DNA from: an uncultured Verrucomicrobiota bacterium
GTDB lineage: Bacteria > Verrucomicrobiota > Verrucomicrobiia > Opitutales > UBA9783
DNA: 64,000 nt
Reading direction: 5' to 3'
Assembly (NCBI GenBank): GCA_946186275.1
Contig: CAMHMO010000005.1
Location: forward strand, 5,087-69,086
The stretch's first letter is position 1. Every line of letters begins with the position of its first letter. Below the pieces are notes generated by a model, which saw nothing but the letters and a program-made list of their open reading frames with translations, was not told the DNA's origin and did no database searches. This document shows, in pieces, positions 2,350 to 52,282 of the stretch. Made by a program: the position numbers and the translations under genes.

Positions 2350-3075
2350 TTACGCCTTCTCCGCCTTTTCGAACGTGTGAAATTCCGGCGTGATTTTAAA
2401 TTCAATCAGTTCGCCTTCGATTTCGTTCGGTGCATAAAGGGAGCGCAGTTCGACGGGAAACGGTTGAGCCATCAAAACGGCGTTCAGGGTACTGAGGGTG
2501 TGCCAATTTGTGCGAACATTCGGGGTCGGACACGTGCGGATTTCGAATTCGACCAGGTTCGGATTATCCATGGAATATCCGTCTTCGCCGAAACGAAAGT
2601 TAATGCCGATCGGCGTTCCCAAGGGAAGCAGTTTGTCGGTGCACAAACGCGGAAGTTTTTTGGAAAGTTCGGTGTTCCGTTGTTGCGCCTTTTTGAACGC
2701 CGCATCGTTATTTTGCCCGATTTGGTTTCGTTGGGCGATCGGAACGGAGGCGTCAAACGGCATGCACAGACCGAAATTAACGCGCGTTTTGGTTTTGGCT
2801 TTGGCATCGGAGGCTTCGAAATTCCACGGATTGAAACCGCGAATGCGGTCAAGTAAGTCCGATGTCACCCGCGGTTCCAATTCCAGCAAATGTTTGATGT
2901 GATCATCGTCGATGCGGTAGTGGTACGCAATCGTCAGTTTCTTTAAGTTCCAATACCAGTAAGCGTAGGTTTTCAGCGGGACGCGTACGGTGGCGAAATT
3001 ATAGGGTGTTTCGGGGCGAAGCAGAATGGCATTGCTGACCCCGAGGGCGTTCACAAATGTGCGGTACGGTTGCAT
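2350..3075 (-). CDS. Hypothetical protein, last gene of the phage-like cluster (possible receptor-binding or fibre protein)
   Basis: 241-aa ORF co-directional with the cluster; no motif recognised; role inferred from position only. Confidence 0.55.
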   Translation of the reverse strand: MQPYRTFVNALGVSNAILLRPETPYNFATVRVPLKTYAYWYWNLKKLTIAYHYRIDDDHIKHLLELEPRVTSDLLDRIRGFNPWNFEASDAKAKTKTRVNFGLCMPFDASVPIAQRNQIGQNNDAAFKKAQQRNTELSKKLPRLCTDKLLPLGTPIGINFRFGEDGYSMDNPNLVEFEIRTCPTPNVRTNWHTLSTLNAVLMAQPFPVELRSLYAPNEIEGELIEFKITPEFHTFEKAEKA

Positions 3076-3139
3076 GACGATTGGAAGGTTGGGTTAAAAG
3101 ACGTTAATTTGACGAAAAATCGGACGATGGAACGGAAAA

Positions 3140-4846
3140 TTACGAGGACGGGATCCAAACGGTTTTCAGTTCGCCGTTTTCCACAACGGCAAATTCTTTG
3201 AGTTTGATTTCGGTTTTTTCGGGCAATGTTGCGGCATTGAGGATCACCTTCTTGTCTTTATCCTTAATCGTCAGCTGTTTGTACTGTCCGCGGTCGATCA
3301 TCGAATTGACCAACGGCGTCATGTGCGGGAAGTACGTTTTGGTGCTTCCGGAGCGTTTGGCGGCAAAGCGTGCGTTCGTATCCTCGGTGATGGTTCGCAT
3401 GCGGTGCGTGTGCATCAACTGGCAAAGGTCGTTGGGACCGAGTTGCTTCGGCGCACCGAATTTCAGTTGTACCGTTCCCGAGTCCAAAAATAAGCGTTCT
3501 TCCTGCACGGGAAGCCGCAAATTGCGCCATTCGGGATGACCGTCGGTAAAATTCAGCGTTTGCCCCATGAAGGAATTGGATAATTCTTCGCATTCCAGTT
3601 GCAGCCGCCCTTCGTAACGCAGGCAGTGTGTTGCGTCGTAGATGATTTTTGCCAAATTTTTTGGCGGTTCCGTGCCTTCGCTGAGAAAGACCGCTTTTCG
3701 ATAAGTGCGCGAAACGGCATCGGTGGCGCAAAATTTAAGGGAAAAGGTTCGGTTTTCGACCACGCTGTCGGCGGTTTCATAACTCACATCAGCGGTAATC
3801 GTTGCATATTCCGCACGACATCCCATCCACGGCGCAACGGCTCCCTTGGTCAGTTCATTCCGCAGTTTCGTCGAACAACGCACATTCGAAATTTGAATAT
3901 CCTTATCCGCCGCTTGGCTCAAACAGGGAAAATGCTCCTTCCACCAGGCGATCGAAGCGATTTCGACAGGTTTTGTTTCCACATACTGCTCCTGGATGTG
4001 CGAATGCGTGCCTTCCAATTCAATCGTCAGCACCAGCGCGTTGAAACCTTCGCCGGCGCCTTTGTTCGGATAGGTATCCGTCGTGACGGTCTTCCAGGTT
4101 TCGCCCGATTGAGAATGTGAGTGTTCGTATTTCAACACGACGGCTTTGATTTGCAGGTCATTCCTCGGAACCATCGAAAATTGAGAACACTTTGAAAGCG
4201 ATAAATCGGTTGTCCCGAGGCGATCGGCGCGCGCGATCCGCAACGTCGGTTGGGACGTTGTGTAGTCGAACCAAACGACCGCATCTGGCGTCCAGCGCAG
4301 AATCTTCATCAATGCTTCGGCGCAACTGCAATCGCGAACGGTTTCGCAGGGAAATGCGAAATCAAAGCCGATAATATCCCCGCAGGCAATCGGTGCGCCG
4401 TGATTTTGGGCGTAGGTCACAATGTCCCGCAAACATTGCGCGGCGTGAACGGGCTTTCCGTCCTTATCCTGTCCCAACAGACAGACACTGCGGGAAACGG
4501 TTTCGGTTTTTCCCGTCCCGTCCTTAAAGTATTCCCACGGTTGCTGAAATACCAGATGTTCCAGATACCACGTGGGTCCGGAGACGCGGCAGGTCGCCAG
4601 CTCTTGCGTTGCGCCGTAAAAGCAGGGGGTTTGCGTGATGCGCCCGCAAAACCAGCGTACGTCATCTTTGAAAATTTCAACCGTTGCTTCGGCGACAAAC
4701 GATTGCGTCGCGGATGTGGTTTGAAACGTCAGCGTGTCGGTGCCCTGATTGAGAACGTGACGTTCGACGTTGAAAATGCCCCATTCGGACAGTGTTTTCC
4801 TCCGGACGCGCTTGTCGGGTGCCTTGTATGATAAAAACCAGGTCAT
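3140..4846 (-). CDS. Putative tail-tip/baseplate hub-like protein (568 aa)
   Basis: N-terminus resembles hub proteins (NQGTDTLTF...WFCGRIT...CRVSGPTWYLEHLVFQQ). ATG at 4846 overlaps the upstream TGA (TGATG). Confidence 0.55.
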   Translation of the reverse strand: MTWFLSYKAPDKRVRRKTLSEWGIFNVERHVLNQGTDTLTFQTTSATQSFVAEATVEIFKDDVRWFCGRITQTPCFYGATQELATCRVSGPTWYLEHLVFQQPWEYFKDGTGKTETVSRSVCLLGQDKDGKPVHAAQCLRDIVTYAQNHGAPIACGDIIGFDFAFPCETVRDCSCAEALMKILRWTPDAVVWFDYTTSQPTLRIARADRLGTTDLSLSKCSQFSMVPRNDLQIKAVVLKYEHSHSQSGETWKTVTTDTYPNKGAGEGFNALVLTIELEGTHSHIQEQYVETKPVEIASIAWWKEHFPCLSQAADKDIQISNVRCSTKLRNELTKGAVAPWMGCRAEYATITADVSYETADSVVENRTFSLKFCATDAVSRTYRKAVFLSEGTEPPKNLAKIIYDATHCLRYEGRLQLECEELSNSFMGQTLNFTDGHPEWRNLRLPVQEERLFLDSGTVQLKFGAPKQLGPNDLCQLMHTHRMRTITEDTNARFAAKRSGSTKTYFPHMTPLVNSMIDRGQYKQLTIKDKDKKVILNAATLPEKTEIKLKEFAVVENGELKTVWIPSS

Positions 4847-5046
4847 CAGTGTCGCGTCTGTTTCAGTTGCTCTTCCAATTCCGCCAGACGGCATTCCAAG
4901 TCGGCGATGCGGTTAAGTTGCTCGTCGTAAGCGTCCGACAGTTCGTTGTAATCTCGGTGATTACCGAAGCCGTTGCAGTAGCCGGGTGAGGACATCATAT
5001 TTTTAAACATTGAGTTATTCATAAAATTTCGGGTGTTGACGGGCAT
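4846..5046 (-). CDS. Small protein with a C-terminal coiled coil
   Basis: 66 aa (a GTG at 5049 is an alternative start); stop/start overlaps on both sides; LECRLAELEEQLK heptads. Confidence 0.55.
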   Translation of the reverse strand: MPVNTRNFMNNSMFKNMMSSPGYCNGFGNHRDYNELSDAYDEQLNRIADLECRLAELEEQLKQTRH

Positions 5047-5456
5047 CACGCATTAACGTGCAGTTTTCCGCCGTAGATTTCATACGTTGTATAGGAAGCA
5101 TTCCCTTTGTAATGCGTTTGAACGGACGCAAGCGTTGCGGATTCCAACGTAAGCGAACGTCCCTTCGAACCTTCCGACTGAATGAGGACTTCGCCGTGTG
5201 CGTGCGCGATTTCGCTCGCATGTACGAGCATGTGTTCGATTGCCGCCGATTGGTCGTTGTGCAGACGTCCGACTTCAAACACAAGCCGAACCTGCAGGTT
5301 ACCGCGGTCGTAGGTTTGAACGGAAGCGGCGCGGATGGCTTTGACGGATTGCAACGTGCGTTCCGCCGTTACGGATATGTGCGTCGGTTCTTCGTTCACT
5401 GCGGTTCCGCCCGCCAAAACGTAGGATTTTTGGTCTGTTTTAAGCGTAATTTTCAT
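5046..5456 (-). CDS. Phage structural protein, distal-tail/tube-like beta fold (tentative)
   Basis: 136 aa with alternating beta-strand patterns (TYDRGNLQVRLVFEV; YTTYEIYGG); ATGA overlap with the upstream gene. Confidence 0.5.
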   Translation of the reverse strand: MKITLKTDQKSYVLAGGTAVNEEPTHISVTAERTLQSVKAIRAASVQTYDRGNLQVRLVFEVGRLHNDQSAAIEHMLVHASEIAHAHGEVLIQSEGSKGRSLTLESATLASVQTHYKGNASYTTYEIYGGKLHVNA

Positions 5457-5902
5457 ACATTCGAAACGTTAAAATCGGAAGTGATAAAGTGCAGTTGCAG
5501 CGCGGTGCCGTTTGTCCAATCGAGTCGCGTCCACGGTTCCTTTTCGGTCAAAACAAAACGACCGTCCCAGAGATTGTCGACGACGATCGGCTTTTGGGTT
5601 ACCTCGAAACTTATTCTTTCCGCCCAATCGATAAACGCGTATGCTTCGTCGTACTGCAATGACTGCGCCAGTGTGAGATTGAGTGACAACGTTCCCCAGC
5701 AGGACGATGCCAATCCGAGCGTTTGCAGCGGGAACGGCAACGAAACGAACAGCAGGAACGGTTGTGTTTGCGCAACTTTTAAGGCAAGCAGTTCATCGAC
5801 GGAAAAGGCGTCGCTTGCAACGACGGTCATCGCGTTTTTGAGCTCCGAAGCTTTGAGAGTTTCAATCAGCTTGGTTTGAATGCTTCGTAAAATCGGTTTC
5901 AT
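5453..5902 (-). CDS. Putative tail terminator/neck protein (Mu gp37 position)
   Basis: 149 aa directly after the gp36-like gene; size and position fit, sequence evidence is weak. Confidence 0.45.
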   Translation of the reverse strand: MKPILRSIQTKLIETLKASELKNAMTVVASDAFSVDELLALKVAQTQPFLLFVSLPFPLQTLGLASSCWGTLSLNLTLAQSLQYDEAYAFIDWAERISFEVTQKPIVVDNLWDGRFVLTEKEPWTRLDWTNGTALQLHFITSDFNVSNV

Positions 5903-5929
5903 GATTATCCTTTCAACGGAAGCGGACTG

Positions 5930-6373
5930 TTAAAATCCTTTCAGCGTCGATTGGCGTGCGTCGCGTCTGCGGTAATGCACCGCTTCGATGCGCGGATCGG
6001 TGACTTTCGGGTTTGATTGCTTTTCCCACATCGCTGCCAGGTCATCGAGCGTTTTGCGCGCCTGTTGGGCGTTGCGGATTTGGTCGTCCGACAATTTTAA
6101 ATCCGGCAGACGTGATTGCAGAGCTTCGATCACCAAGTGGCATGCGGCGGTTTTACACGCCGTCGGAATATGATTGGGTGCCGTCGGGTTCGGGTGAAAC
6201 TTCTGCGGTACGCGATTTTGAATGTACGCGCAGATATCGTTTATAACGGCGTCGATGTGCTTCGGATCGCCTTTTTCGCGGAAATTGTTCACGACCGACA
6301 ACTGGTCTTGAATAAGGTAATCCGAAATATGTTTGGCTTCGAGTAAAGTCCAGGGAATGGAGATAACGGGCAT
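5930..6373 (-). CDS. Head-tail connector, Mu gp36/DUF1320-like
   Basis: Pattern I...I..YI..R...IP..CK.AAC.L....L..R...L...Q....A...L; follows the capsid gene. Confidence 0.7.
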   Translation of the reverse strand: MPVISIPWTLLEAKHISDYLIQDQLSVVNNFREKGDPKHIDAVINDICAYIQNRVPQKFHPNPTAPNHIPTACKTAACHLVIEALQSRLPDLKLSDDQIRNAQQARKTLDDLAAMWEKQSNPKVTDPRIEAVHYRRRDARQSTLKGF

Positions 6374-6452
6374 TGGAATTTAAATGTTTAAGGGTTGATA
6401 AGTGTTAAGGGTTGCGAGAGAGGGCGATAAGCCCTCCCTCGATATGTTTGTG

Positions 6453-7391
6453 TTACGCGCCTTTGACTTTGATTTGCAGAATGTTGGTGGCGGACGTAAC
6501 AACGATATTGCTGTAATGTTCGACGGTAATATCGGTGTACTTGGTGTGCGGTTCGACGTAGACGCGGAACAAATGTCCGTCATCGAACGGCGTTACGAAG
6601 CGTTTAACGGCTGACGGTTCATCCTTTAACAGTCCGTTTTGGGCATAGAACGCGAAGATTTCATCGCCTTCCAATTCCTTGCCTTGTAACCCGAGATGCA
6701 CCTGTTTGATCAGTTGCACGTTTTCGACGAGCAACTTTTCCGCCAACGCTTCGCGCGACAATTCCGCCGCAATGCGGGCGCCGGCATTGTTCTGCGACGC
6801 GTAGCAGTCCTGACGGAGATACCAGGCGTTTTCACTGAACAGCAGACGGTTCGGCGAAAATCCGTAGTCGGAGCGTGCCGTTAAGACGGCGTTGCGAAGA
6901 TCCGCATCCGGTTGCGCTTTTTCACCCGTCCAGGCGTCCGGCTCGACAATTTGCTTTTTGCTTTTCTTCTGAGCCGCTTTGATCGTTTCGACGAACGCCC
7001 TGATCGTACGACGATACTCGTTGCAACAGAGGCGGCGTTTCAGGGCATAAACATAGCGCGTTTCCCAGTCACCGCCGGCGATGTCATCCGTGTCCACGCG
7101 TATCGTCAGACCTTTGTTGAACGTTTTTGACTGGATCGTATCGCCGTTGAAGTCGATGCGTTTGAAAGGGCTGCCGGCGGTGCGAATGTCGTCGCTTTCC
7201 GAATAAAACGTGTCGTTTTCGGTGATCCTTTTGTAGTCATGGCGACGCGGAACCAATGTGCACGGTGCGGCGAAATTTAACGCTTTTTCAACGTCTTCGT
7301 TGCCCTGCGACGTATTGGCAAATTGCGTCAGTTCGGACGAATAGTAATTTTGATTGAATTGTGTTTCGTTTGCTTGTGTTGCGGTTGTCAT
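6453..7391 (-). CDS. Major capsid protein (HK97-fold candidate)
   Basis: 312 aa after the protease and cement genes and before the gp36-like gene; IRTAGSPFKRIDF and KGLTIRVD segments are capsid-like. Confidence 0.7.
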   Translation of the reverse strand: MTTATQANETQFNQNYYSSELTQFANTSQGNEDVEKALNFAAPCTLVPRRHDYKRITENDTFYSESDDIRTAGSPFKRIDFNGDTIQSKTFNKGLTIRVDTDDIAGGDWETRYVYALKRRLCCNEYRRTIRAFVETIKAAQKKSKKQIVEPDAWTGEKAQPDADLRNAVLTARSDYGFSPNRLLFSENAWYLRQDCYASQNNAGARIAAELSREALAEKLLVENVQLIKQVHLGLQGKELEGDEIFAFYAQNGLLKDEPSAVKRFVTPFDDGHLFRVYVEPHTKYTDITVEHYSNIVVTSATNILQIKVKGA

Positions 7392-7403
7392 AAGAGGATG
7401 TGA

Positions 7404-7826
7404 TTATTTGAGGTTATTGGGAAGTGAAGTCAGTGCTTCGATACGATCGTCTTTTCCGCCGCTCGAAAGTGCCAGACCGATGATGTTGCTGCCGTCCGAA
7501 CATTTTTTGGCGAAGCCGTCCTTGGAAAAGCTGATGAATTCACCGGCTTTGACGGCGTCCGCCATGAGAATGCGCGCCGTTTGTCCGTTGTTGGACAGCG
7601 GTTGAACGGAGATGTAGGTTTTGTCGTCCGAGGCGGTCGTGTCGCGCAGGGCAATTCCCCAGGGAATGCTCTTTTCGGGACACGGCACAACGAACTGTTC
7701 GTCGTCGTCAAAGCTGATCAGCATGCCGGCTCTGACCGCGCTTCCCGGTTTCAGACGCTTTGTGAGAGCGCCTTCGAAAAACCCAACGGCGTTTGCGTTG
7801 GACATGATTTTATGGGTTGTATTCAT
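7404..7826 (-). CDS. Capsid cement/decoration protein (DUF2190-like)
   Basis: 140 aa Gly/Ala-rich beta protein (VKAGEFISFSKDG...IIGLALSSG) between protease and capsid. Confidence 0.6.
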   Translation of the reverse strand: MNTTHKIMSNANAVGFFEGALTKRLKPGSAVRAGMLISFDDDEQFVVPCPEKSIPWGIALRDTTASDDKTYISVQPLSNNGQTARILMADAVKAGEFISFSKDGFAKKCSDGSNIIGLALSSGGKDDRIEALTSLPNNLK

Positions 7827-7859
7827 AGGTTAAAAAAAGGGTTAAAAGGATTGTTAAAT

Positions 7860-8819
7860 TTACGGTTGTTTCGTAACCGTTGCCGTTTTCAACGACCGCG
7901 GCGCAAAATTTCTGCGTTTTGTGCAAGCCGTCGGCGGTTTGGATCCGTCGCTTTCCGTTGCATTCGGATAATTGCCTGCAATGGTTGCGGGCGTTTGATG
8001 AAGCAACGCGTTCCAGGCCTCCGGGTAACTTTCGCCTGTGGCTTCCATCCGTGCCCGAACGGCTTGCCCGAACTGCAGAATGCGGCGTTTTTCTTCGCGC
8101 GTTTGCGTACCGTGCAGATCCGATGAAAGCGGTGTTCGATGCCCCGAGAATAGATCTTCGTCGGATGTCGGGAGTAGGGTAGAGGACTGTGTGCCGATGG
8201 TCGATGCTGTTGGTTTGATTTTTTTCACAAACGCCCGACGTAACGGTTCGATGAACGTTGCAAATCCCTTGTGAAGTGCGCCATCGGAACGAACGCCGCC
8301 TGTTTGCGTGTGCGACGTTTCGGTGGAACGTTGCCGTTTCGTCAAAGCTCGCAGAAGAACACGAAGTCCGAAGCTTTTTTTCGGGAATGCATCGAACGCA
8401 ATCGGTTGAACGGGCAAATTCGGGTGTTGCGTTAGACCGACGGAAAGGAGACGTTCGGGATGATAAGCGGTTTGATGTTCCGTTTTACAAAGTACCCAGC
8501 GGGGTGACAGGTACTGTCGCGGCGATTTGGACAGGAAGGTGTGACCGTATTTTGTTAATTTTACAAACACCCACAGACCGTCTCCATCGGCGCACAAATT
8601 TTTCACATAGCCGTAAATGCGCGGATCCGAATGTTCGTTCTTAAATAACGGATCGTCGGGATGTCCGAGGTAGACGGGGATTTTTTTCAGCCCGAGACGG
8701 AACCGCCACGTGCGCGTTTTCCGAATGCACCGTTGCGCGTCGGCGGACGAGATGCTTTGCAGACCCTCCGGATGTTCGAAGGTACCGTAGGGCGATAAAT
8801 GAAGTTTAACAGTTTTCAT
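7860..8819 (-). CDS. Mu gpI-like prohead protease with a possible C-terminal scaffold
   Basis: GHPD...IYGYV...GDGLWV...YLSPRW...LLSVGLTQHPNL matches the Mu-like protease pattern; scaffold-like VRARMEATGESYPEAW near the end. Confidence 0.8.
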   Translation of the reverse strand: MKTVKLHLSPYGTFEHPEGLQSISSADAQRCIRKTRTWRFRLGLKKIPVYLGHPDDPLFKNEHSDPRIYGYVKNLCADGDGLWVFVKLTKYGHTFLSKSPRQYLSPRWVLCKTEHQTAYHPERLLSVGLTQHPNLPVQPIAFDAFPKKSFGLRVLLRALTKRQRSTETSHTQTGGVRSDGALHKGFATFIEPLRRAFVKKIKPTASTIGTQSSTLLPTSDEDLFSGHRTPLSSDLHGTQTREEKRRILQFGQAVRARMEATGESYPEAWNALLHQTPATIAGNYPNATESDGSKPPTACTKRRNFAPRSLKTATVTKQP

Positions 8820-8836
8820 GGATGTTTAGTTTTTGA

Positions 8837-10033
8837 TTACTTTTGAACGGTGTCGTTTTTATCCGTCGGCGGATTGATGCCGAAGTGTTCGCGAATATCG
8901 TTGAGGCTCAGGGGGATGTTCATTTCGTAAAGGGTTTTCAAAATCGCCAGGTCGTTGTTGAGGTTTTTGTTGGGCGAAGGTTTCAGGTGAAAGTAGGCTT
9001 TAGGGAATTCGGTTTGCTCTAAATGCTTTAAAACAGCCCGATCGACCTGGTCGTTGAGCGTGTCGGAAATCATTTGTGCGTCGTCCTCTTCCAACAGATC
9101 GCGTTCGTTGCGCTGTTGCGTAACGCCGACAGCATTTTCGCGCCCCAGCGTGGTCAAATCCGAACCGCGCCAGAGAGCCGCCATGGCGCGATCCATGCGT
9201 TCCACCAGCTTCGGATACGGCAATTCGCCTTTGCCGGAAATATCGATCGCCTGAATATCCGTTCCGGCGGACATCAATGCATGAAATTCCGCGCCGAAAT
9301 TCTGCACCGCTTCGCGTGCGATTTCCCACTCGGCGGAACCGGGACGCGCCTGCGTAATGCCTTTGACGCCGGGCATGCCGTTGCGCTCGCAGTAAATCAG
9401 CCAATCGCGCAGAGGAAGGTGCTTGAACAGATAGGCAATGGAGCACGATTCCATCAGCCCGTCACCCGTGGTAACGAGCCATTCGTCGCCGGACAACGGA
9501 ATGTCTTTATTACCTTTGTCGCCGACGAAATGCAATTTCCCGTCTTTGTTTTCGAAGAAGAACAGCGGTACGAAACGAAATTCCGCCGTCAACAGCGACC
9601 GATCGTCCTTACGAAAGGACTTGAAGACAATTTCGTGCACGGCGTAACGCTTTCCGACGGCATCCATCATCTGACGGATGAGCAACGGCAGACCGCCGCG
9701 TTCGTTTTCGTCGTAGGCGTTAATGCAGGAAAGGTGATTGTAGAATTGCTCTAAAATCTCCTTCTGCCGCGCGGCTTCTTCGGAATTATCCAATGTGAGG
9801 ATTTCCCAATCGAGGCGCGAAATCGACTTTTTGCGTTTGGAAATCACGCCCTGAAGCAGGTCGTCGCGACGTTCGATGGCGTCCCAAACAAGTGCGGCTT
9901 GGCGCAGTTTGCCGGCGTGGAAATCGTCCAAAATGCGCGCCAGCGACGTCGGCGTCAACGAACGAATGGGGTTCCAGTTCAGTCGCGCGAGGCTGTCGCG
10001 ACGCAACGGCGTTACGTAGGTGTTGGTTTTCAT
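8837..10033 (-). CDS. Portal protein, Mu gp29/DUF935 family (398 aa)
   Basis: LARILDD...IERRDDLLQGVISKRK.SI..LDWEI; W..YCERNGMPGV; GTDIQAI. Start placed at ATG 10033 rather than the ORF-track start 10267. Confidence 0.88.
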   Translation of the reverse strand: MKTNTYVTPLRRDSLARLNWNPIRSLTPTSLARILDDFHAGKLRQAALVWDAIERRDDLLQGVISKRKKSISRLDWEILTLDNSEEAARQKEILEQFYNHLSCINAYDENERGGLPLLIRQMMDAVGKRYAVHEIVFKSFRKDDRSLLTAEFRFVPLFFFENKDGKLHFVGDKGNKDIPLSGDEWLVTTGDGLMESCSIAYLFKHLPLRDWLIYCERNGMPGVKGITQARPGSAEWEIAREAVQNFGAEFHALMSAGTDIQAIDISGKGELPYPKLVERMDRAMAALWRGSDLTTLGRENAVGVTQQRNERDLLEEDDAQMISDTLNDQVDRAVLKHLEQTEFPKAYFHLKPSPNKNLNNDLAILKTLYEMNIPLSLNDIREHFGINPPTDKNDTVQK

Positions 10034-10305
10034 GACAAAACGGAAAAGAAACGTTTGTGAACGGTGGCGGGAACGAAGGCGTTCGCGCATAATGCGTTGC
10101 CGACATTCGACGGATATTGATTTCCGCGGCGTCTTCGCGGCGGCGGCGTTTGGAATTCGGGTGTACTCATAAGATTTAAGAAAGTATCTGGAAACGCGGA
10201 TGCCTTCGTAAGACGGGAGGTTTTTTCGGAAAAACGATTTCCGCGGTCGAATTTCCTGCCGAGGCACTTTATGGCTTCGAACGTTTTATTTTTGTCAGTA
10301 TTCAT
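10030..10305 (-). CDS. Small basic hypothetical protein (91 aa) between terL and portal
   Basis: Fills the gap from ATG 10305; its TGA overlaps the portal ATG (ATGA at 10030-10033). Confidence 0.4.
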   Translation of the reverse strand: MNTDKNKTFEAIKCLGRKFDRGNRFSEKTSRLTKASAFPDTFLNLMSTPEFQTPPPRRRRGNQYPSNVGNALCANAFVPATVHKRFFSVLS

Positions 10306-10319
10306 GGTGTCAAAGGTGT

Positions 10320-11642
10320 TCAGAAGCAGGCGGTCGGTCGTTGAAAATGAAACAGTTCGGCAACAGCACTTGATGAAGACTGCTTTCGGTCGGCATGCAG
10401 AGCCAGAGCCAATGCCCAAAAGCGGTCGGCGTGTCCGTCGGCACCGTGTTGTGCCGTCAGTTTCATATCCTCCGAGATGCGAACGGCAAGCAGATCGGAA
10501 ATCAGCTTTTCGTCGCACGGAAGGCGCAGGGTTCGTTGTTCGATGTGTGTTTTCAAATTGTAGGCGAGCGTTTCTTTGGTGCTTTGCGTGAATTGGATGC
10601 CTTCAACGGCAGTACCGAAACGTGCCTGTGCGCGTTCCAGGAATTGTCGCCCGATGCCCGTTTGATCCACGCAGACGCGTTGAACGTTAAAATTGCGAAA
10701 TAAACGTTCGAAGAGGGCTTCCTGTTCGTCGAAGCGCGCGTTTTTCAGGCACTGCACGTGACGGAGAAAGAATATGTTTTCGACTTTCTCAACCAAAACG
10801 AAGGCACTCAAATCCTGTGTTCGTGCGAGGTCAACGCCCATCAGTGCCGTTCCGTTCGTCCACGAGCGCCAATCGCAATTCTTATCGTAAAAGCACCGTT
10901 CCAGGGCTTCGTAGGAGAGAAGCGTCGAGGCGTCTTCCATCGGTTGACACATGTATTCCTGCAGAAAGGCTTTTTCGGTGGCGCAGGAATTTTTGATAAA
11001 ATTGTAATAATCGCCTTCATCCATGGTTTGGCGCGGGTCGTCGGGCGGAAGTTTGGCCTTGAGTTTTTGCAAAAATCCCTGTTCCAATGCGTCCGATAAC
11101 GTGACGCGATGCAGGGAAATACCCTTCGGATTACCGCCGTTGCGCGCTTCCTCAATGAGACGATTGAAGAAATTGTGTGCGCCGCGGTGCGTGGAAATCA
11201 TCTCCAACTGCCCGCCCCAGGTAATGCCCGGGTAGGCGACGTTGTAGAGGGCTTCCGGGTCTTCGTGCAGGGCGAATTCGTCCAAAATCCTCGACCCGCG
11301 CTTGCCGGCTTGGGCATTGATGTTGGAAGAAATCAATGTCAACGTACTGCCGTTGTTGAGGCGCAGGATTGTCCGTTGTTCCGATTGTTTTCCGATCAGC
11401 TTTTCCTTGTACGCCTGATTGAGAACGGACGCGAAGGCTTTGCAGTCGTTGAGGAACAACTGCGCCTGTTGCAGATCGCGGGAACAAATCCAAACGTGCG
11501 TTCTCGGATGAACGGCGGCATTTCGCAAGGCACGGTATGCCGTTGACCACGAGAGACCGATTTGTCGGGATTTTTCCATAATTTTGATACGCGCGTCGTC
11601 GCGGATCCAGCGTACCTGATAGGGGAGAAAGAACGGCGTCAT
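10320..11642 (-). CDS. Terminase large subunit, Mu gp28-like
   Basis: FLPYQVRWI.D, EKSRQIGLSW (Walker A region), ILDEFA (Walker B), ISTHRG, MGVDLART, VDQTGIG and GHADRFWALALA (nuclease). Confidence 0.93.
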   Translation of the reverse strand: MTPFFLPYQVRWIRDDARIKIMEKSRQIGLSWSTAYRALRNAAVHPRTHVWICSRDLQQAQLFLNDCKAFASVLNQAYKEKLIGKQSEQRTILRLNNGSTLTLISSNINAQAGKRGSRILDEFALHEDPEALYNVAYPGITWGGQLEMISTHRGAHNFFNRLIEEARNGGNPKGISLHRVTLSDALEQGFLQKLKAKLPPDDPRQTMDEGDYYNFIKNSCATEKAFLQEYMCQPMEDASTLLSYEALERCFYDKNCDWRSWTNGTALMGVDLARTQDLSAFVLVEKVENIFFLRHVQCLKNARFDEQEALFERLFRNFNVQRVCVDQTGIGRQFLERAQARFGTAVEGIQFTQSTKETLAYNLKTHIEQRTLRLPCDEKLISDLLAVRISEDMKLTAQHGADGHADRFWALALALHADRKQSSSSAVAELFHFQRPTACF

Positions 11643-11974
11643 AACATTTGAAGTTGATCTTCAATATCTTTGAGAACGTCTTCCGACAAAGCCCATGCGT
11701 TGTTGTCGGCGTTTTCTGGATTGGATTTTTGGCACACGGCAAACAGCTGTCGGTAGGTTTGCAGGAGCTTGTGAAGAATGCCCGTCAGTTCTTTTACCGT
11801 ACTTAAGTCCGATTGGGTTTCGTCGACGCACAAACGATCGAAAATGCGTTCCCAAAGCAGTCCCATGGATTGTTCCGCGATATTCATTTGTTCGAGGAGA
11901 GAAGCTGTATTTTTGGCGCGCTGAATGCGTTGCAGGTGCTCCTTAAAGGCGATCGGCGTTTCTTCGTTCATCAT
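11639..11974 (-). CDS. Putative terminase small subunit, Mu gp27-like
   Basis: Directly upstream of terL with ATGA overlap; C-terminus LSEDVLKDIEDQLQML resembles gp27/DUF3486-type tails. Confidence 0.6.
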   Translation of the reverse strand: MMNEETPIAFKEHLQRIQRAKNTASLLEQMNIAEQSMGLLWERIFDRLCVDETQSDLSTVKELTGILHKLLQTYRQLFAVCQKSNPENADNNAWALSEDVLKDIEDQLQML

Positions 11975-12227
11975 TGAGAAAATCAATTCCTTTAACGGAT
12001 AATTTGTAGCGTCGGTGTTGCGGACAAAGTTCGTTCGGAACGAGCTCCACGAAGTCTTTGGCATGCAAATACGCCAGCTCCTTTTCCAAAAACCGCCGTC
12101 GGATGCGCAGCCCCGAGAGAAACAGCCCCAATTTGAGGGTTTTCATCGGCAGCGAATGCGGATAAGCGGCGTCCAGTTGCAACAACAGCGTGCGTCGGAC
12201 AAATTCGTTGAGAACAAATTCAATCAT
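11943..12227 (-). CDS. Winged-helix protein, Mu gp26-like
   Basis: 94 aa: RRTLLLQL...LEKELAYLHAKDFV...YKLSVKGIDF; gp26 position upstream of terS. Confidence 0.6.
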   Translation of the reverse strand: MIEFVLNEFVRRTLLLQLDAAYPHSLPMKTLKLGLFLSGLRIRRRFLEKELAYLHAKDFVELVPNELCPQHRRYKLSVKGIDFLNDERRNADRL

Positions 12228-12236
12228 AAAAATCCT

Positions 12237-12689
12237 TTAATGTTTCAAATCTACAAGCGCGCTTCCGAAGTACAGCCCGACGATGGCGGAGAGCAGATGC
12301 GTATCGAGCGGCGTGATGACGAGCCCGTTCAGCTGAACCCAGTGGAGTTTTTCGTAAGCGGAGGAGAAGAACAGAAATCCGCCCGAGCGTTGCGAATAAC
12401 CGACCGAAATCGGAACGTTCGGGTAAAAGACGGCAATCAGTTTCGGCCAGGCAATGACGAAGAAGACTGCGATAAACGCGATAAAGCGCCGCGTCAGTTG
12501 CAAACCCGACGCTTTACGCGCACTGACGACGGTATGTTCGAGGGCGCGCGTTCGGCAGAGGCGCATCAGATGTTCGCGGTGATGCGCCATCATGAAGAAA
12601 CTGAGTAAGCGGATTCCGCTGCCGAGAAGCGACGATCCGAGCAGCGAAACCAGTTCCGAGGGGAGGGGTGTTGAGGCGAAGGTGTTCAT
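12237..12689 (-). CDS. Phage-type membrane protein (putative holin-like)
   Basis: Hydrophobic segments; TRRFIA...PKLIAVFYP...GLVITPLDTHLLSAIVGLYFG resembles uncharacterised phage membrane proteins; first gene of the cluster (lysis-gene position in Mu). Confidence 0.5.
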   Translation of the reverse strand: MNTFASTPLPSELVSLLGSSLLGSGIRLLSFFMMAHHREHLMRLCRTRALEHTVVSARKASGLQLTRRFIAFIAVFFVIAWPKLIAVFYPNVPISVGYSQRSGGFLFFSSAYEKLHWVQLNGLVITPLDTHLLSAIVGLYFGSALVDLKH

Positions 12690-12920
12690 GTGCCCCGAGT
12701 GTATCGAAAAATGCCGAAATCCCCAACGCTTGCATGGGCTGCAGCCCGTTCTGTTGGCTGGTTGGAGTGGATTGCGTTACGCGGGATGAGGTTTTGGAAA
12801 ATTGATCGAAAAAGACAAAAAGTCGACCCGAAAACGGTTTGGAAAATCGGTCGGTTTTAACACCGAAAAAGGCGTTTTCGATGAAAAGGTAAATTTTCTC
12901 AAAAAAAACCTAAAAAACAC

Positions 12921-12947
12921 TTGACTCTCTCTCTCTCTCTCTCTAAT
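12921..12947 (+). promoter_or_regulatory. Sigma70-type promoter whose spacer is a CT repeat
   Basis: TTGACT (12921-26), 15-bp spacer, TCTAAT (12942-47); ATG follows at 12954. Confidence 0.6.
12925..12944 (+). repeat. (CT)10 dinucleotide repeat
   Basis: Read directly from the sequence. Confidence 0.97.
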
Positions 12948-12953
12948 GGAGGC

Positions 12954-13733
12954 ATGAATGGGAAATGTTTATGCCTTATCGGCGGTTTGGGGGTTGTCGG
13001 AATGTCGGCGATTACGGGATTAAAAGCATCGGACGGCGGTTCGGAGGTTGACTACGGTCGGGAATGGAACCCGTACGTGACGGTACGCGGCGGATGGCTG
13101 TTCGGGAAAGCGAAATACAACGATTACGTAACTTTTGGAAATACAGTCGATCATAGTATCAAAAAGAGCATTAAAAATGCCTGGTCGGGTTCGGCGGAGC
13201 TCGGTACATCTTACGACGATCGTGTTTTTGTCGGCTTGGAGTTGGGATATTTTACGGGAAAGATGAAGGATGTTGCGGGCGGTTGTTCGATTCTCGCAGG
13301 AGGGAACAGAGTTGATATGGAATGGAAAGGGAACGGTAAAATAGAAAATTATTTCGGTGCCTGCAATGTAACCCTGCGGCACGATGTCGGAGAGCGGGCA
13401 TTTTTATACGGCGGCGTCGGAGCGGGTATCGCGCGATCGCGGTGTTCTTACGATTTGAATGTAAGGGTGACGGTGACGATTCCGCCGGCACCCGCGGTTA
13501 CCGCAGATGAGCCCGAGGGAGGCGGAAAAGACAAGTGGCGGTTTCTCGGGCAGATGTTTGCGGGAATCGGTGTATGTCTCAATGAAAATTGGCAATTAAC
13601 AGCGGGCTATCGTTTGCGGTATATACCCGGAAGTTTTCATTGGGACGGAAAAAATGATGCATTGGAAGTCGGCTTTTCGGTCAAGCAGGATATTGTTCAC
13701 GCCGCAGAGATCGGGCTGACGTATCTGTTTTAA
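12954..13733 (+). CDS. Outer-membrane beta-barrel protein (opacity/OMP_b-brl-like), paralog 1
   Basis: Signal peptide, amphipathic strands, AGYRLRY and C-terminal EIGLTYLF with terminal Phe. Confidence 0.85.
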   Translation: MNGKCLCLIGGLGVVGMSAITGLKASDGGSEVDYGREWNPYVTVRGGWLFGKAKYNDYVTFGNTVDHSIKKSIKNAWSGSAELGTSYDDRVFVGLELGYFTGKMKDVAGGCSILAGGNRVDMEWKGNGKIENYFGACNVTLRHDVGERAFLYGGVGAGIARSRCSYDLNVRVTVTIPPAPAVTADEPEGGGKDKWRFLGQMFAGIGVCLNENWQLTAGYRLRYIPGSFHWDGKNDALEVGFSVKQDIVHAAEIGLTYLF

Positions 13734-13814
13734 CGCCATCCCTTTACGGGGCTACCGAAGCGCGGGCACTGTGATGTGTCCGCGCCTTGTGTGTTTTTTC
13801 TCTAAATTTCCCTT

Positions 13815-15158: not shown

Positions 15159-15383
15159 TTTTCTATACCCTCACCATATGAAATGTGCAAAAGGTGTCAA
15201 TCGAATAGGAATTATTTCGTATTTTACGGAAAATTTTTCCGAAATACGGTTTGTCGGATATGGCATTGAGGGAAGTTGTCTACCCATATAGGCATGGAAA
15301 GCTTTTGTGTTGCCGACGTTGAAGACAACTGTACGGCGGCGAAATTTTTATGAAAAATGCGGTTGTTTTCCGCAAAAAAACGC

Positions 15384-15412
15384 TTGACGGTCTTTTTAAA
15401 TGCCTCAACAGT
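15384..15412 (+). promoter_or_regulatory. Candidate promoter for tRNA-Thr/tuf
   Basis: A-tract, TTGACG, 17-bp spacer, AACAGT. Confidence 0.4.
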
Positions 15413-49938: not shown

Positions 49939-49975
49939 TTGACATTCCTTTCTTCCTTTCTTTCTTTTTTTCCAT
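49939..49975 (+). promoter_or_regulatory. Promoter region homologous to that of OMP paralog 1, with a pyrimidine-repeat spacer
   Basis: AAAAAAC-TTGACA, then TTCCTTTC x2, TTTC and a T run; no good -10 at a 17-bp spacing. Confidence 0.35.
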
Positions 49976-49981
49976 GAAAGT

Positions 49982-50734
49982 ATGAAGAGGAGATGTACAT
50001 GTTTCACAAGCTCAATGTGCGTTGTTGGGATGCTGTCGGGTGTGTCGTTGGGAGCGACGAGTAGTTTAGAGGTTGACTATGGACGGGAGTGGAGCCCATA
50101 CGTGACATTGCGCGGCGGGTGGCTGTTTGGAGAATATAAAATGCGTGATCATTACGATATCGGTGATTGGAATTGGAAAAGAAGCACCGAAAGCGGTTGG
50201 TTGTATTCGGCGGAAGCAGGTATAGCCTGTTTTGAAGATCGCGTATTTTTAGGGTTGGAACTGGGAAGTTTCGGAGAAAAAGTTCACGATAATCTTCGAT
50301 GTAATTCGCCGGAGGTTTTCCTGGTGGTACGGGTGGACGAGATTTCGGCGGACGGCAAAATTAAGCATTCTTTCAGTGCCTGTAACTTTACGTTTAAACA
50401 GGACATCGGTGAGCGCGCTTTCCTGTACAGCGGCGTCGGTGTCGGGATTGTACGCGCGGTTGCGGATTGGCATTTCCGTGAAACCGGTATAGACATAGGC
50501 ACTGGTGATGAGTGGAACGACGTGCATTCCGAGCATGATGCCAAATGGGGGGGGGGCGGTCAGGCGTTTGGCGGGCTCGGTTGGTATTTGAATGACAACT
50601 GGTCTTTGAGTGTCGGCTATCGTTTGCGTTATGTACCCGGCGATTTTCGTTTCCTTGATGCCGACGGCTGTGGTTTGTCGGTGAAATCAAACTGTTTGCA
50701 TGCTGCAGAGGTGGGACTGACGTATAGGTTTTAG
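49982..50734 (+). CDS. Outer-membrane beta-barrel protein, paralog 2
   Basis: Shares EVDYGREW.PYVT.RGGWLFG, VGYRLRYVPG and HAAEVGLTYRF with 12954-13733. Confidence 0.85.
   Translation: MKRRCTCFTSSMCVVGMLSGVSLGATSSLEVDYGREWSPYVTLRGGWLFGEYKMRDHYDIGDWNWKRSTESGWLYSAEAGIACFEDRVFLGLELGSFGEKVHDNLRCNSPEVFLVVRVDEISADGKIKHSFSACNFTFKQDIGERAFLYSGVGVGIVRAVADWHFRETGIDIGTGDEWNDVHSEHDAKWGGGGQAFGGLGWYLNDNWSLSVGYRLRYVPGDFRFLDADGCGLSVKSNCLHAAEVGLTYRF
50547..50556 (+). repeat. G10 homopolymer inside the OMP paralog 2 CDS
   Basis: AAAT-GGGGGGGGGG-CGGT, read directly. Confidence 0.95.
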
Positions 50735-50922: not shown

Positions 50923-52059
50923 TTACCCCTCTCCGCCGATAAGTGCCTCTACGTAGGACGCTATCGAAAACGGTTGCAAATCCTCCGCTTTTTCGCCCAG
51001 ACCGACGAAGTAAATCGGTACGTGCAGGGTTTGATAAATGCCGACCAATGCACCGCCTTTGCTCGTTCCGTCCAGTTTGGTGACAATAAGTCCCGTCAAA
51101 CCGACGGCTTCGTGAAATAATTTCGCCTGTTGCAGGGAATTGGTGCCAAGGGAACCGTCGATGACCAGCCAGCGGTGTTGCGGAAACAACGGATGGCACT
51201 TGTGAAGTACGCGTACCATCTTTTTGAGTTCCTCCGTGAGCGAGGTTTTGGTGTGCAGGCGCCCGGCGGTATCCAAAATGACGCGTTGATAGCCGCGATG
51301 GAGACCCGCTTGGCAAACGTCGTAGGCGACGGAAGCCGCATCGGCACGCTGTTGACTGCCGATGCAGTCCAAATGCAACCGTTCCGCCCAGGTTTTCAGT
51401 TGCTGATCCGCCGCGGCGCGAAAGGTATCGCAGGAGCCCAACAGGGTATGTCGGTTGTTTTTTTCGAAGAAATGTGCCAATTTCGCCGCGGTGGTTGTTT
51501 TCCCTGCTCCGTTGATGCCCAACAGCAGTATGACCTGTAAATCGACCGCCTGCGTATTCGGAGGCGATTGAGGCAGAGAAGCATTTTTATCGGATGCAGG
51601 TGAGGCATCGGTTAGAGTAAAAGGCATATTCGGATGGGATGCGCCGTTTGTTGCCTGTTGTTCCAATACGGGCGAACGGAAAACTTGTCCTTCGGAGGTG
51701 TTGCCGCGGTATTCTTCGTTTTCAACCGCTCCGCTCACGTTCGACGGAGTACCTGCGGCGACGGCATCGGATGGAACCGACAGAGGATTACCTTCGGAAC
51801 CCTGTAAAAGTTCGGTTAAAATTTGGCGCAGCAGTTCGGTGCCATCGACGGTTTTGTTTGTTTTGGAGGCTTCTTCAACGCGTTTCAGGACATATTCGAC
51901 GGTATCGACGCCGAAATCCGCTTCGTACAAACTCCGTTCCAACGATTGTCGGTCGTCCGCCGAGAGAGAAGGTTTCGAGAAAACGGCGACAACACTGCGC
52001 GTGATGCTCTGACGTACTTTGGCGCATTTTTCCGCAAACGTTTTAAAAAAGCCTAACAT
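50923..52059 (-). CDS. ftsY: SRP receptor FtsY with an internal insertion
   Basis: GINGAGKTTT, DTFRAAA, DTAGR, TKLDGTSKGG. Confidence 0.96.
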   Translation of the reverse strand: MLGFFKTFAEKCAKVRQSITRSVVAVFSKPSLSADDRQSLERSLYEADFGVDTVEYVLKRVEEASKTNKTVDGTELLRQILTELLQGSEGNPLSVPSDAVAAGTPSNVSGAVENEEYRGNTSEGQVFRSPVLEQQATNGASHPNMPFTLTDASPASDKNASLPQSPPNTQAVDLQVILLLGINGAGKTTTAAKLAHFFEKNNRHTLLGSCDTFRAAADQQLKTWAERLHLDCIGSQQRADAASVAYDVCQAGLHRGYQRVILDTAGRLHTKTSLTEELKKMVRVLHKCHPLFPQHRWLVIDGSLGTNSLQQAKLFHEAVGLTGLIVTKLDGTSKGGALVGIYQTLHVPIYFVGLGEKAEDLQPFSIASYVEALIGGEG

Positions 52060-52184
52060 ACTTCCTTTGAGATGTGCTTCGGCATGCCGTTGATGAAACG
52101 CTTGGAATCATCCGATGCGTACTCTTTGGCGAGCTTAACAGCTTCATTAGTGACCGCCGATGTCGTTTCACAAGAACTTAACAT
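52053..52184 (-). CDS. 43-aa mini-ORF formed from a diverged duplicate of the nusB 3' end
   Basis: MLSSCETTSAVTNEAVKLAKEYASDDSKRFINGMPKHISKEVC; its ATG overlaps the nusB end and its end overlaps the ftsY ATG. Confidence 0.5.
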   Translation of the reverse strand: MLSSCETTSAVTNEAVKLAKEYASDDSKRFINGMPKHISKEVC

Positions 52185-52282
52185 ACCTCCTTTGCAATGC
52201 GATCAAGCATGCCGTTGATGAAACGCTTGGAATCGTCCGATGCGTACTCCTTGGCGAGTTCAATGGCTTCGTTAATGACTAC
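52053..52282. repeat. Diverged tandem duplication, 125-bp offset
   Basis: CATGCCGTTGATGAAACGCTTGGAATC occurs at 52083 and 52208, with flanking similarity over about 105 bp. Confidence 0.93.

Follow-up and report, generated by a model that had tools for sequence, protein, structure and literature searches.

Simple sequence repeats (SSRs) that lie in the spacer between the -35 and -10 hexamers and switch the gene behind them are known from porA (poly-G) and opc (poly-C) of N. meningitidis and from hifA/hifB (TA) of H. influenzae, as well as from fim of B. pertussis (poly-C) and vlp of M. hyorhinis (poly-A) (PMC3899988). We analysed a stretch of 64,000 nucleotides (the window) from an uncultured rumen bacterium of the Opitutales (phylum Verrucomicrobiota), in which a CT repeat occupies the corresponding position ahead of a gene for a predicted outer membrane protein (OMP). 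SSR contingency loci are textbook material in Neisseria, Haemophilus, Helicobacter, Campylobacter and Mycoplasma, and to our knowledge SSR-based contingency systems have until now been described nearly always in host-adapted pathogens; in gut commensals, phase variation is mostly attributed to invertible promoters. A full-text literature search retrieved nothing on Verrucomicrobia that described SSR phase variation or leaderless transcription. The elements surrounding the repeat are the following, with coordinates in the window.

12900-12920, plus strand: A-rich tract (A8 and A6 runs) abutting the -35 hexamer on its upstream side, UP-element-like
12921-12926, plus strand: TTGACT, predicted -35 hexamer, whose TTG is also a codon in the frame of ATG 12954
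12925-12944, plus strand: (CT)10 SSR (TRF: period 2, 10.0 copies, 100% matches)
12942-12947, plus strand: TCTAAT, predicted weak -10 hexamer (5/6 matches, C at -11)
12948-12953, plus strand: GGAGGC, SD-like 6-nt segment of discriminator length between the -10 hexamer and the ATG
12954-13733, plus strand: OMP gene, 259 aa; PF13505; signal peptide, about 25 aa long (MNGKCLCLIGGLGVVGMSAITGLKA); predicted small beta-barrel; C-terminus ...LTYLF
13760-13795, plus strand: intrinsic terminator-like hairpin with a T run, 3' of the OMP gene

The promoter sequence of the OMP gene thus reads CAAAAAAAACCTAAAAAACAC-TTGACT-CTCTCTCTCTCTCTC-TCTAAT-GGAGGC-ATG. The distance between the two hexamers is 15 bp (12927-12941), and the spacer is made up wholly of repeat, because (CT)10 overlaps the -35 hexamer by two bases and the -10 hexamer by three. 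The first-pass annotation of this DNA was accurate on these points: the hexamers, (CT)10, GGAGG and ATG 12954 lie where it had placed them (as judged from the sequence and TRF), the 15-bp spacer is CT repeat throughout and would grow to 17 bp with (CT)11, and transcription starting 7 nt past the -10 hexamer would begin on A12954. What it missed were the TTG at 12921 in frame with the ATG (ORF 12921-13733, starting MTLSLSLSNGGM-NGKC...), the absence of an A at position -11, and the family-wide repeat pattern. An A at -11 is normally essential for sigma-70, and both TCTAAT and TCTCAT, the form found in the CT orthologues, have a C there and so lack this mark of a competent -10 hexamer. A standard promoter scan (16-18 bp spacers) detected no sigma-70-like promoter further upstream on the plus strand.

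The (CT)10 array is the sole dinucleotide array of at least six units in the window, far above chance expectation, and 14 or more orthologous loci, assembled independently of one another, have the same tract in the same place; it is therefore no assembly artefact. The A-rich tract 5' of the -35 hexamer is kept in every orthologue and paralog compared. GGAGG (12948-12952) is followed by a single base and then by ATG 12954, a separation too short for SD function. SD motifs at normal spacing are rare in the window as a whole (9 of 63 long ORFs in a crude scan), which suggests that SD-less initiation is normal in this genome; many genes in the window have A/T-rich upstream regions. RNA folding of the 5' region is not significant (z = -0.54), and the MFE structure leaves the CT tract unpaired. 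A riboregulator or hairpin role for the region was discarded because the fold is not significant.

The claim that the gene encodes an OMP is borne out by a match to PF13505 (OMP_b-brl), barely over the gathering score (30 bits vs a cut-off of 28.7), and by the predicted barrel fold, together with the signal peptide and the C-terminal aromatic residue. The AlphaFold2 model, obtained from a 42-sequence alignment, predicts a tall beta-barrel of about eight long antiparallel strands (pLDDT 82), the first 34 residues being disordered. Its Foldseek matches are OmpA-TM, Ail, OmpX, NspA and OmpT/Pla, with E around 1e-7 and low TM-scores, and a sequence search against solved structures returned marginal matches only. 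PF13505 alone matched at E <= 0.01, with no match to the Neisserial Opa family (PF02462); some homologues bear the JGI label 'opacity protein-like surface antigen'. Nearly all of the 103 homologues come from rumen or gut metagenomes, and the genomes with the family are exclusively MAGs of rumen Opitutales/Verrucomicrobia. Each of them has several paralogs, six or more in Tb.RUG.38 and four or more in SRR873610_bin.125. Public gene calls within the family are inconsistent (P0002, P0003, P0013, P0104-P0106, P0112, P0117): an in-frame tract often leads to a called start at the TTG or further upstream, giving spurious LSLSLS N-termini, and otherwise the called start is the ATG or an internal Met. 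The MTLSLSLS... N-termini are an annotation artefact worth noting in practice.

The first-pass annotation had proposed to count CT units in related genomes, and the length is indeed variable, with n = 6-16 among orthologues. The counts listed here were made on assembled sequence, those of the Logan contigs (n = 7, 8, 9 and at least 14) being read off indel tables, and they represent a comparison from strain to strain, not per read.

n = 6: L011/L012
n = 7: X14/X15 contigs; P0112 (deduced from its N-terminus)
n = 8: L013/L014; X9/X10 contigs; L016/L032 (variant flank)
n = 9: X7/X20; X12
n = 10: the window; L002; L015; L033; proteins P0104, P0105, P0106 and P0117
n = 12: L029
n = 13: L004
n = 14: L031
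n = 15: L030; L005
n = 16: L003
n at least 14: X4

The flanks of the repeat are constant among orthologues, following the pattern A-tract-CTTGN-(CT)n-[C/A]ATGGAGGY-ATG with GGAGGY kept. Rapid change of length shows most plainly in L030 and L031, which come from different samples and differ over 1011 bp solely by one CT unit. Short tracts, on the other side of the range, look stable, with n = 6 in both L011 and L012 (96.5% identical) and n = 8 in both L013 and L014 (99.8% identical). The modal allele, n = 10, is common to strains whose flanks are 81-88% identical (12-19% DNA divergence). The spacer of a CT locus equals 2n-5, so the alleles correspond to 7, 9, 11, 13, 15, 19, 21, 23, 25 and 27 bp, many of them (21-27 bp) distant from any optimum; n = 11, i.e. 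the 17-bp spacer, is absent from the roughly 19 distinct loci compared (about 24 contigs). A 19-bp spacer is seen once, in L029, where the start codon of the gene is destroyed and a stop comes early: in positions 1416-1500 of this locus, which include (CT)12, ATT replaces the start ATG and TAA follows three codons on, so this OMP copy is probably pseudogenised. Contigs often end at the tract (X2, X3, X4, X8), which is compatible with length heterogeneity without proving it, and the depth of the source-like run X1 was insufficient to span it. The CTCTCTCTMATGGAGGYATG pattern, run against collections of genomes, metagenomes and viruses, recovered the Tb.RUG.38 locus and chance matches only.

To compare the paralogs, we anchored the left side of the alignment at the conserved A-tract and TTG and its right side at the start codon. 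The promoter regions obtained in this way are given as -35 hexamer, spacer, -10 hexamer and the stretch up to the start codon.

49939-49981, plus strand, paralog b: TTGACA, 25 bp of imperfect TTCC/TTTC, TTCCAT, GAAAGT-ATG
49982-50734, plus strand, coding region of paralog b: second OMP paralog in the window, 250 aa, 47% identical
L019: TTGATC, 18 bp with (TTCC)4, TATCAT, GAAAAC-ATG
L020: TTGACC, 21 bp with (TTCC)5+, TCCCAT, GGAGGC-GTG
L018: TTGACA, 10 bp with (CATA)n, TACACT, 12 nt including GGAG, then GTG
L025/L023/L028/L024: TTGNNN, (CCTA)n of 6/14/18/38 bp, TAYCAT, 14 nt, then ATG
L022, repeat-free: TTGATA, 17 bp, TATACT, 8 nt, then ATG
L026, repeat-free: TTGACA, 17 bp, TATATT
X10 contig, repeat-free: TTGACA, 17 bp, TGCTATAAT, GAAAAC
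L021, repeat-free: TTGCCG, 15 bp (apparent), CATACT, 9 nt, then ATG

The spacer that holds the CT tract in the orthologues is thus filled in paralogs by (TTCC)4, (TTCC)5-6, (CCTA)2-10 or (CATA)3. Among the repeat-free copies, that on the X10 contig shares the upstream flank and displays a perfect extended consensus promoter. The -11 A is present in the CCTA and TTCC paralogs (TACCAT/TATCAT), and the 6-nt discriminator of paralogs, GAAAAC or GAAAGT, has the same length as GGAGGY in the orthologues. The promoter region of the tRNA-Thr/tuf genes in the window (15375-15389) reads AAAAAAC-N2-TTGAC(G), that is, AAAAAACGC-TTGACG, the same arrangement as at the OMP promoter. Because TTGAC aligns with the repeat-free consensus promoters and recurs in this arrangement of A-tract and hexamer at tuf, we conclude that it is the -35 hexamer of the family's predicted promoter. 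No good -10 hexamer was found 17 bp downstream of the tuf TTGACG, and the promoter rules of this organism may therefore differ from those of E. coli. The start codon follows the -10 hexamer after 6 nt in the window, L019, L020 and paralog b and after 8 nt in L022; a distance of 6-8 nt holds for most paralogs, the CCTA subfamily having 14 nt. As far as such geometry can tell, 6-8 nt fits a leaderless or near-leaderless mRNA.

Judging from these alignments, the spacer is a site that SSRs of several chemistries have repeatedly taken over. In the 1-8 kb loci of the family, the only repeat array of at least four units is the one preceding the OMP gene. The recurrence of different units at one and the same spacer, with none comparable elsewhere, is the strongest argument for selection for mutability. 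The spacer of paralog b resembles a degenerate form of the (TTCC)n in L019/L020, and its promoter may be locked off. Within its coding region lies a G10 run (50547-50556), the only homopolymer of nine or more bases in the window, which gives KWGGGGQAF where homologues have KWRFLGQAF and could be a tract for phase variation of the frameshift type. The TTCC/CCTA paralogs L019, L021, L023, L024, L025 and L028 have the motif TTCTCGGAGGCGGTCAAAAGAAGTTTTT about 60-110 nt upstream of the -35 hexamer, in L019 within a GCCTCC/GGAGGC hairpin.

On its 5' side, the OMP gene of the window is adjoined by a divergent phage-like head/packaging module (2350-12689, minus strand), with these members.

10320-11642, minus strand: TerL
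8837-10267, minus strand: portal
7860-8819, minus strand: protease
6453-7391, minus strand: major head protein
Minus strand, further members: a 150-aa phrog_38283 protein and a 94-aa phrog_436 protein

The block terminase-110 aa-94 aa-150 aa together with the OMP gene is syntenic in many rumen contigs, and the gene 3' of the OMP varies (HPF in the window, SfsA or dnaX in other contigs). A constant block with a changing downstream neighbour suggests that the OMP gene may travel with a prophage or a GTA-like element, in which case a switch might serve phage-receptor or superinfection dynamics. The tract was also considered as a prophage att site, a candidate ruled out by the presence of spacer repeats in paralogs away from the phage-like module. 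A separate feature of the window is a 125-bp tandem duplication at 52054-52279 (1.8 copies, 84% identical), located at and just upstream of the start of a 378-aa minus-strand ORF (50923-52059). No RNA runs with the OMP gene of the window or with paralog b were found, and the sole metatranscriptome contig (X18) covers only the minus-strand gene upstream of the OMP.

With modest confidence, we interpret the tract as a hypermutable SSR in a promoter spacer that would switch the transcription of a leaderless surface OMP gene by slippage. A repeat inside the promoter, a length that varies between strains and repeats ahead of the sister genes together make a slippage-driven expression switch probable. 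If the hexamers are an active promoter, slipped-strand mispairing would shift their distance in 2-bp steps (15 bp now, 17 bp at n = 11), and transcription would be switched or stepped, heritably and reversibly, within a population. The mRNA would have its 5' end at the AUG or 1-2 nt from it, i.e. it would be leaderless, and with most paralogs carrying a spacer SSR (CT, TTCC, CCTA or CATA) the outcome would be combinatorial variation of the surface. Several observations speak against a plain ON/OFF switch. The CT spacers span 7-27 bp, a range broader than in classical switches, which cluster round the optimum; n = 11 is unseen; the -10 hexamer of the CT loci is devoid of the -11 A; near-identical strain pairs with short tracts agree in n; and the repeat-free L021 seems to have a 15-bp spacer. 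One reading of the modal n = 10 is that 15 bp is the working or selected state in this organism, another that the tract is rather stable at this length; a third is that being OFF by one step is the usual majority state, with ON counter-selected. The first-pass annotation had called the allele of the window low or off, a verdict built on arithmetic and analogy that these data do not establish, n = 10 being the commonest allele, n = 11 unseen and many alleles distant from any optimum.

Could the tract instead act on translation, or not act at all? If initiation took place at TTG 12921, the protein would gain an LSLSLS leader before its signal peptide, and CT gain and loss would cause coding frameshifts, with n = 7, 10, 13 and 16 being ON. 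The TTG is indeed in frame with ATG 12954 in the window, and gene callers have extended several homologues across the tract (MTLSLSLSHGGM..., MPLSLSLSLSLSHGGM...), but the homologous TTG is the consensus -35 in the repeat-free paralogs, where it stands out of frame (37 nt), and in paralog b its frame meets a stop ahead of the ATG. The repeat units of the family measure 2 or 4 nt and never 3, as a frameshifting device would have it, the modal n = 10 is an in-frame number, and 6 of the 11 loci unselected for their N-terminus are in frame vs one third expected (binomial p about 0.12, an estimate); yet none of the three frames is scarce (n = 6, 8, 9, 14, 15). An ATG or GTG start followed by a canonical K/R-rich signal peptide is conserved in all paralogs, so out-of-frame alleles still leave an intact ATG ORF, and those with n = 6, 8, 14 and 15 indeed have one, with no truncation. 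TTG is a rare start codon, though this one is preceded by an A-rich stretch in a genome that initiates mostly without SD, and no promoter was detected further upstream. We regard the frameshift reading as quite unlikely, and as weaker than the promoter-spacer reading. Equally directed at translation, or at mRNA stability, is the idea that an unrecognised upstream promoter makes the tract part of a 5' UTR, where it would bind S1 or pair as UCUCU-GGAGG. Such pairing is possible on inspection via G-U wobbles, few SD sequences are used in the genome, and the promoter rules of Verrucomicrobiota are uncharacterised; against this stand the non-significant fold with its unpaired tract, the lack of an upstream promoter match, the consensus promoter exactly at this place in repeat-free paralogs, and the CCTA/CATA paralogs, which share the architecture without GGAGG. 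Taken together, these make a 5' UTR role very improbable.

The remaining alternative, which we consider unlikely, dispenses with an adaptive switch and views the variation as mutational noise drifting neutrally in the pyrimidine-rich spacer of weakly expressed, silent or decaying family members. It would account for the broad and nearly flat distribution of lengths (6-16) without a cluster at 17 bp, for the weak -10 hexamer, for L029 (n = 12) with its missing start codon and early stop, and for paralog b with its degenerate tract and 25-bp spacer. Decay is, however, difficult to reconcile with ORFs that are nearly all intact and conserved and with the conservation of the flanking hexamers and the 6-nt discriminator, and noise would hardly place different units at exactly one spacer across paralogs with no comparable array elsewhere in the loci.

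Returning to the promoter-spacer reading, its extension to the whole family is more tentative: it is possible, though we would not count on it, that rumen Opitutales possess an SSR contingency system in which leaderless OMP copies switch independently, the surface is combinatorial, and the spacers were colonised independently of each other. Should the promoter-spacer reading be true, slippage-based surface variation would extend to uncultured Verrucomicrobiota of the rumen, with phages or the host as the presumed source of pressure. The family would also constitute a natural series of promoter spacers, 7-27 bp long and of four repeat chemistries, ahead of leaderless genes, in which promoter geometry could be examined beyond the model phyla.

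Among the described systems, the locus resembles the porA/hif type most in having an SSR in the -35/-10 spacer of a surface-protein gene (the promoter being predicted here and unmapped), in that gain or loss of a unit alters the spacing, and in a repeat number that differs between close strains; hif is the closest of all, because its repeat is also a dinucleotide and hence changes in 2-bp steps. It departs from this type in the CT unit, in the phylum (Verrucomicrobiota, as a rumen commensal), in the -10 hexamer lying 6 nt from the ATG, in alleles that span 7-27 bp with 17 bp unobserved, and in a whole paralogous family that bears differing units (CT, TTCC, CCTA, CATA) in one spacer. The hop/OMP genes of H. 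pylori (oipA, sabA, hopZ, babB) have CT repeats in the region coding for the signal peptide. They share with our family the CT repeat at the 5' end of a multicopy OMP gene and the LSLSLS encoded in frame, whereas here the tract precedes a conserved ATG with its signal peptide, no start lies upstream other than a TTG that is also part of the -35 hexamer, and the ATG ORF stays intact when the tract is out of frame. The opa genes of Neisseria, about 11 independently switching paralogs with coding CTCTT pentamers, are likewise multicopy genes for small beta-barrel surface proteins, each with a pyrimidine-rich SSR at the 5' end, but our family belongs to PF13505 and not to Pfam Opacity, and its repeats precede the ATG and have units of 2 or 4 nt. 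The likeness to hop and opa is thus thematic; the repeat within a translated ORF that defines both is probably not what the OMP family has. In tprE/G/J of Treponema pallidum, poly-G tracts lie upstream of the TSS, so that there, as would be the case here, a repeat beside the core promoter of OMP-family paralogs modulates transcription; the tpr repeat is a homopolymer, from another phylum and in another position relative to the hexamers. On sequence grounds, the locus is most likely a case of spacer phase variation of the porA/hif type, that is, a known mechanism in an unexpected phylum and in a multicopy OMP family.
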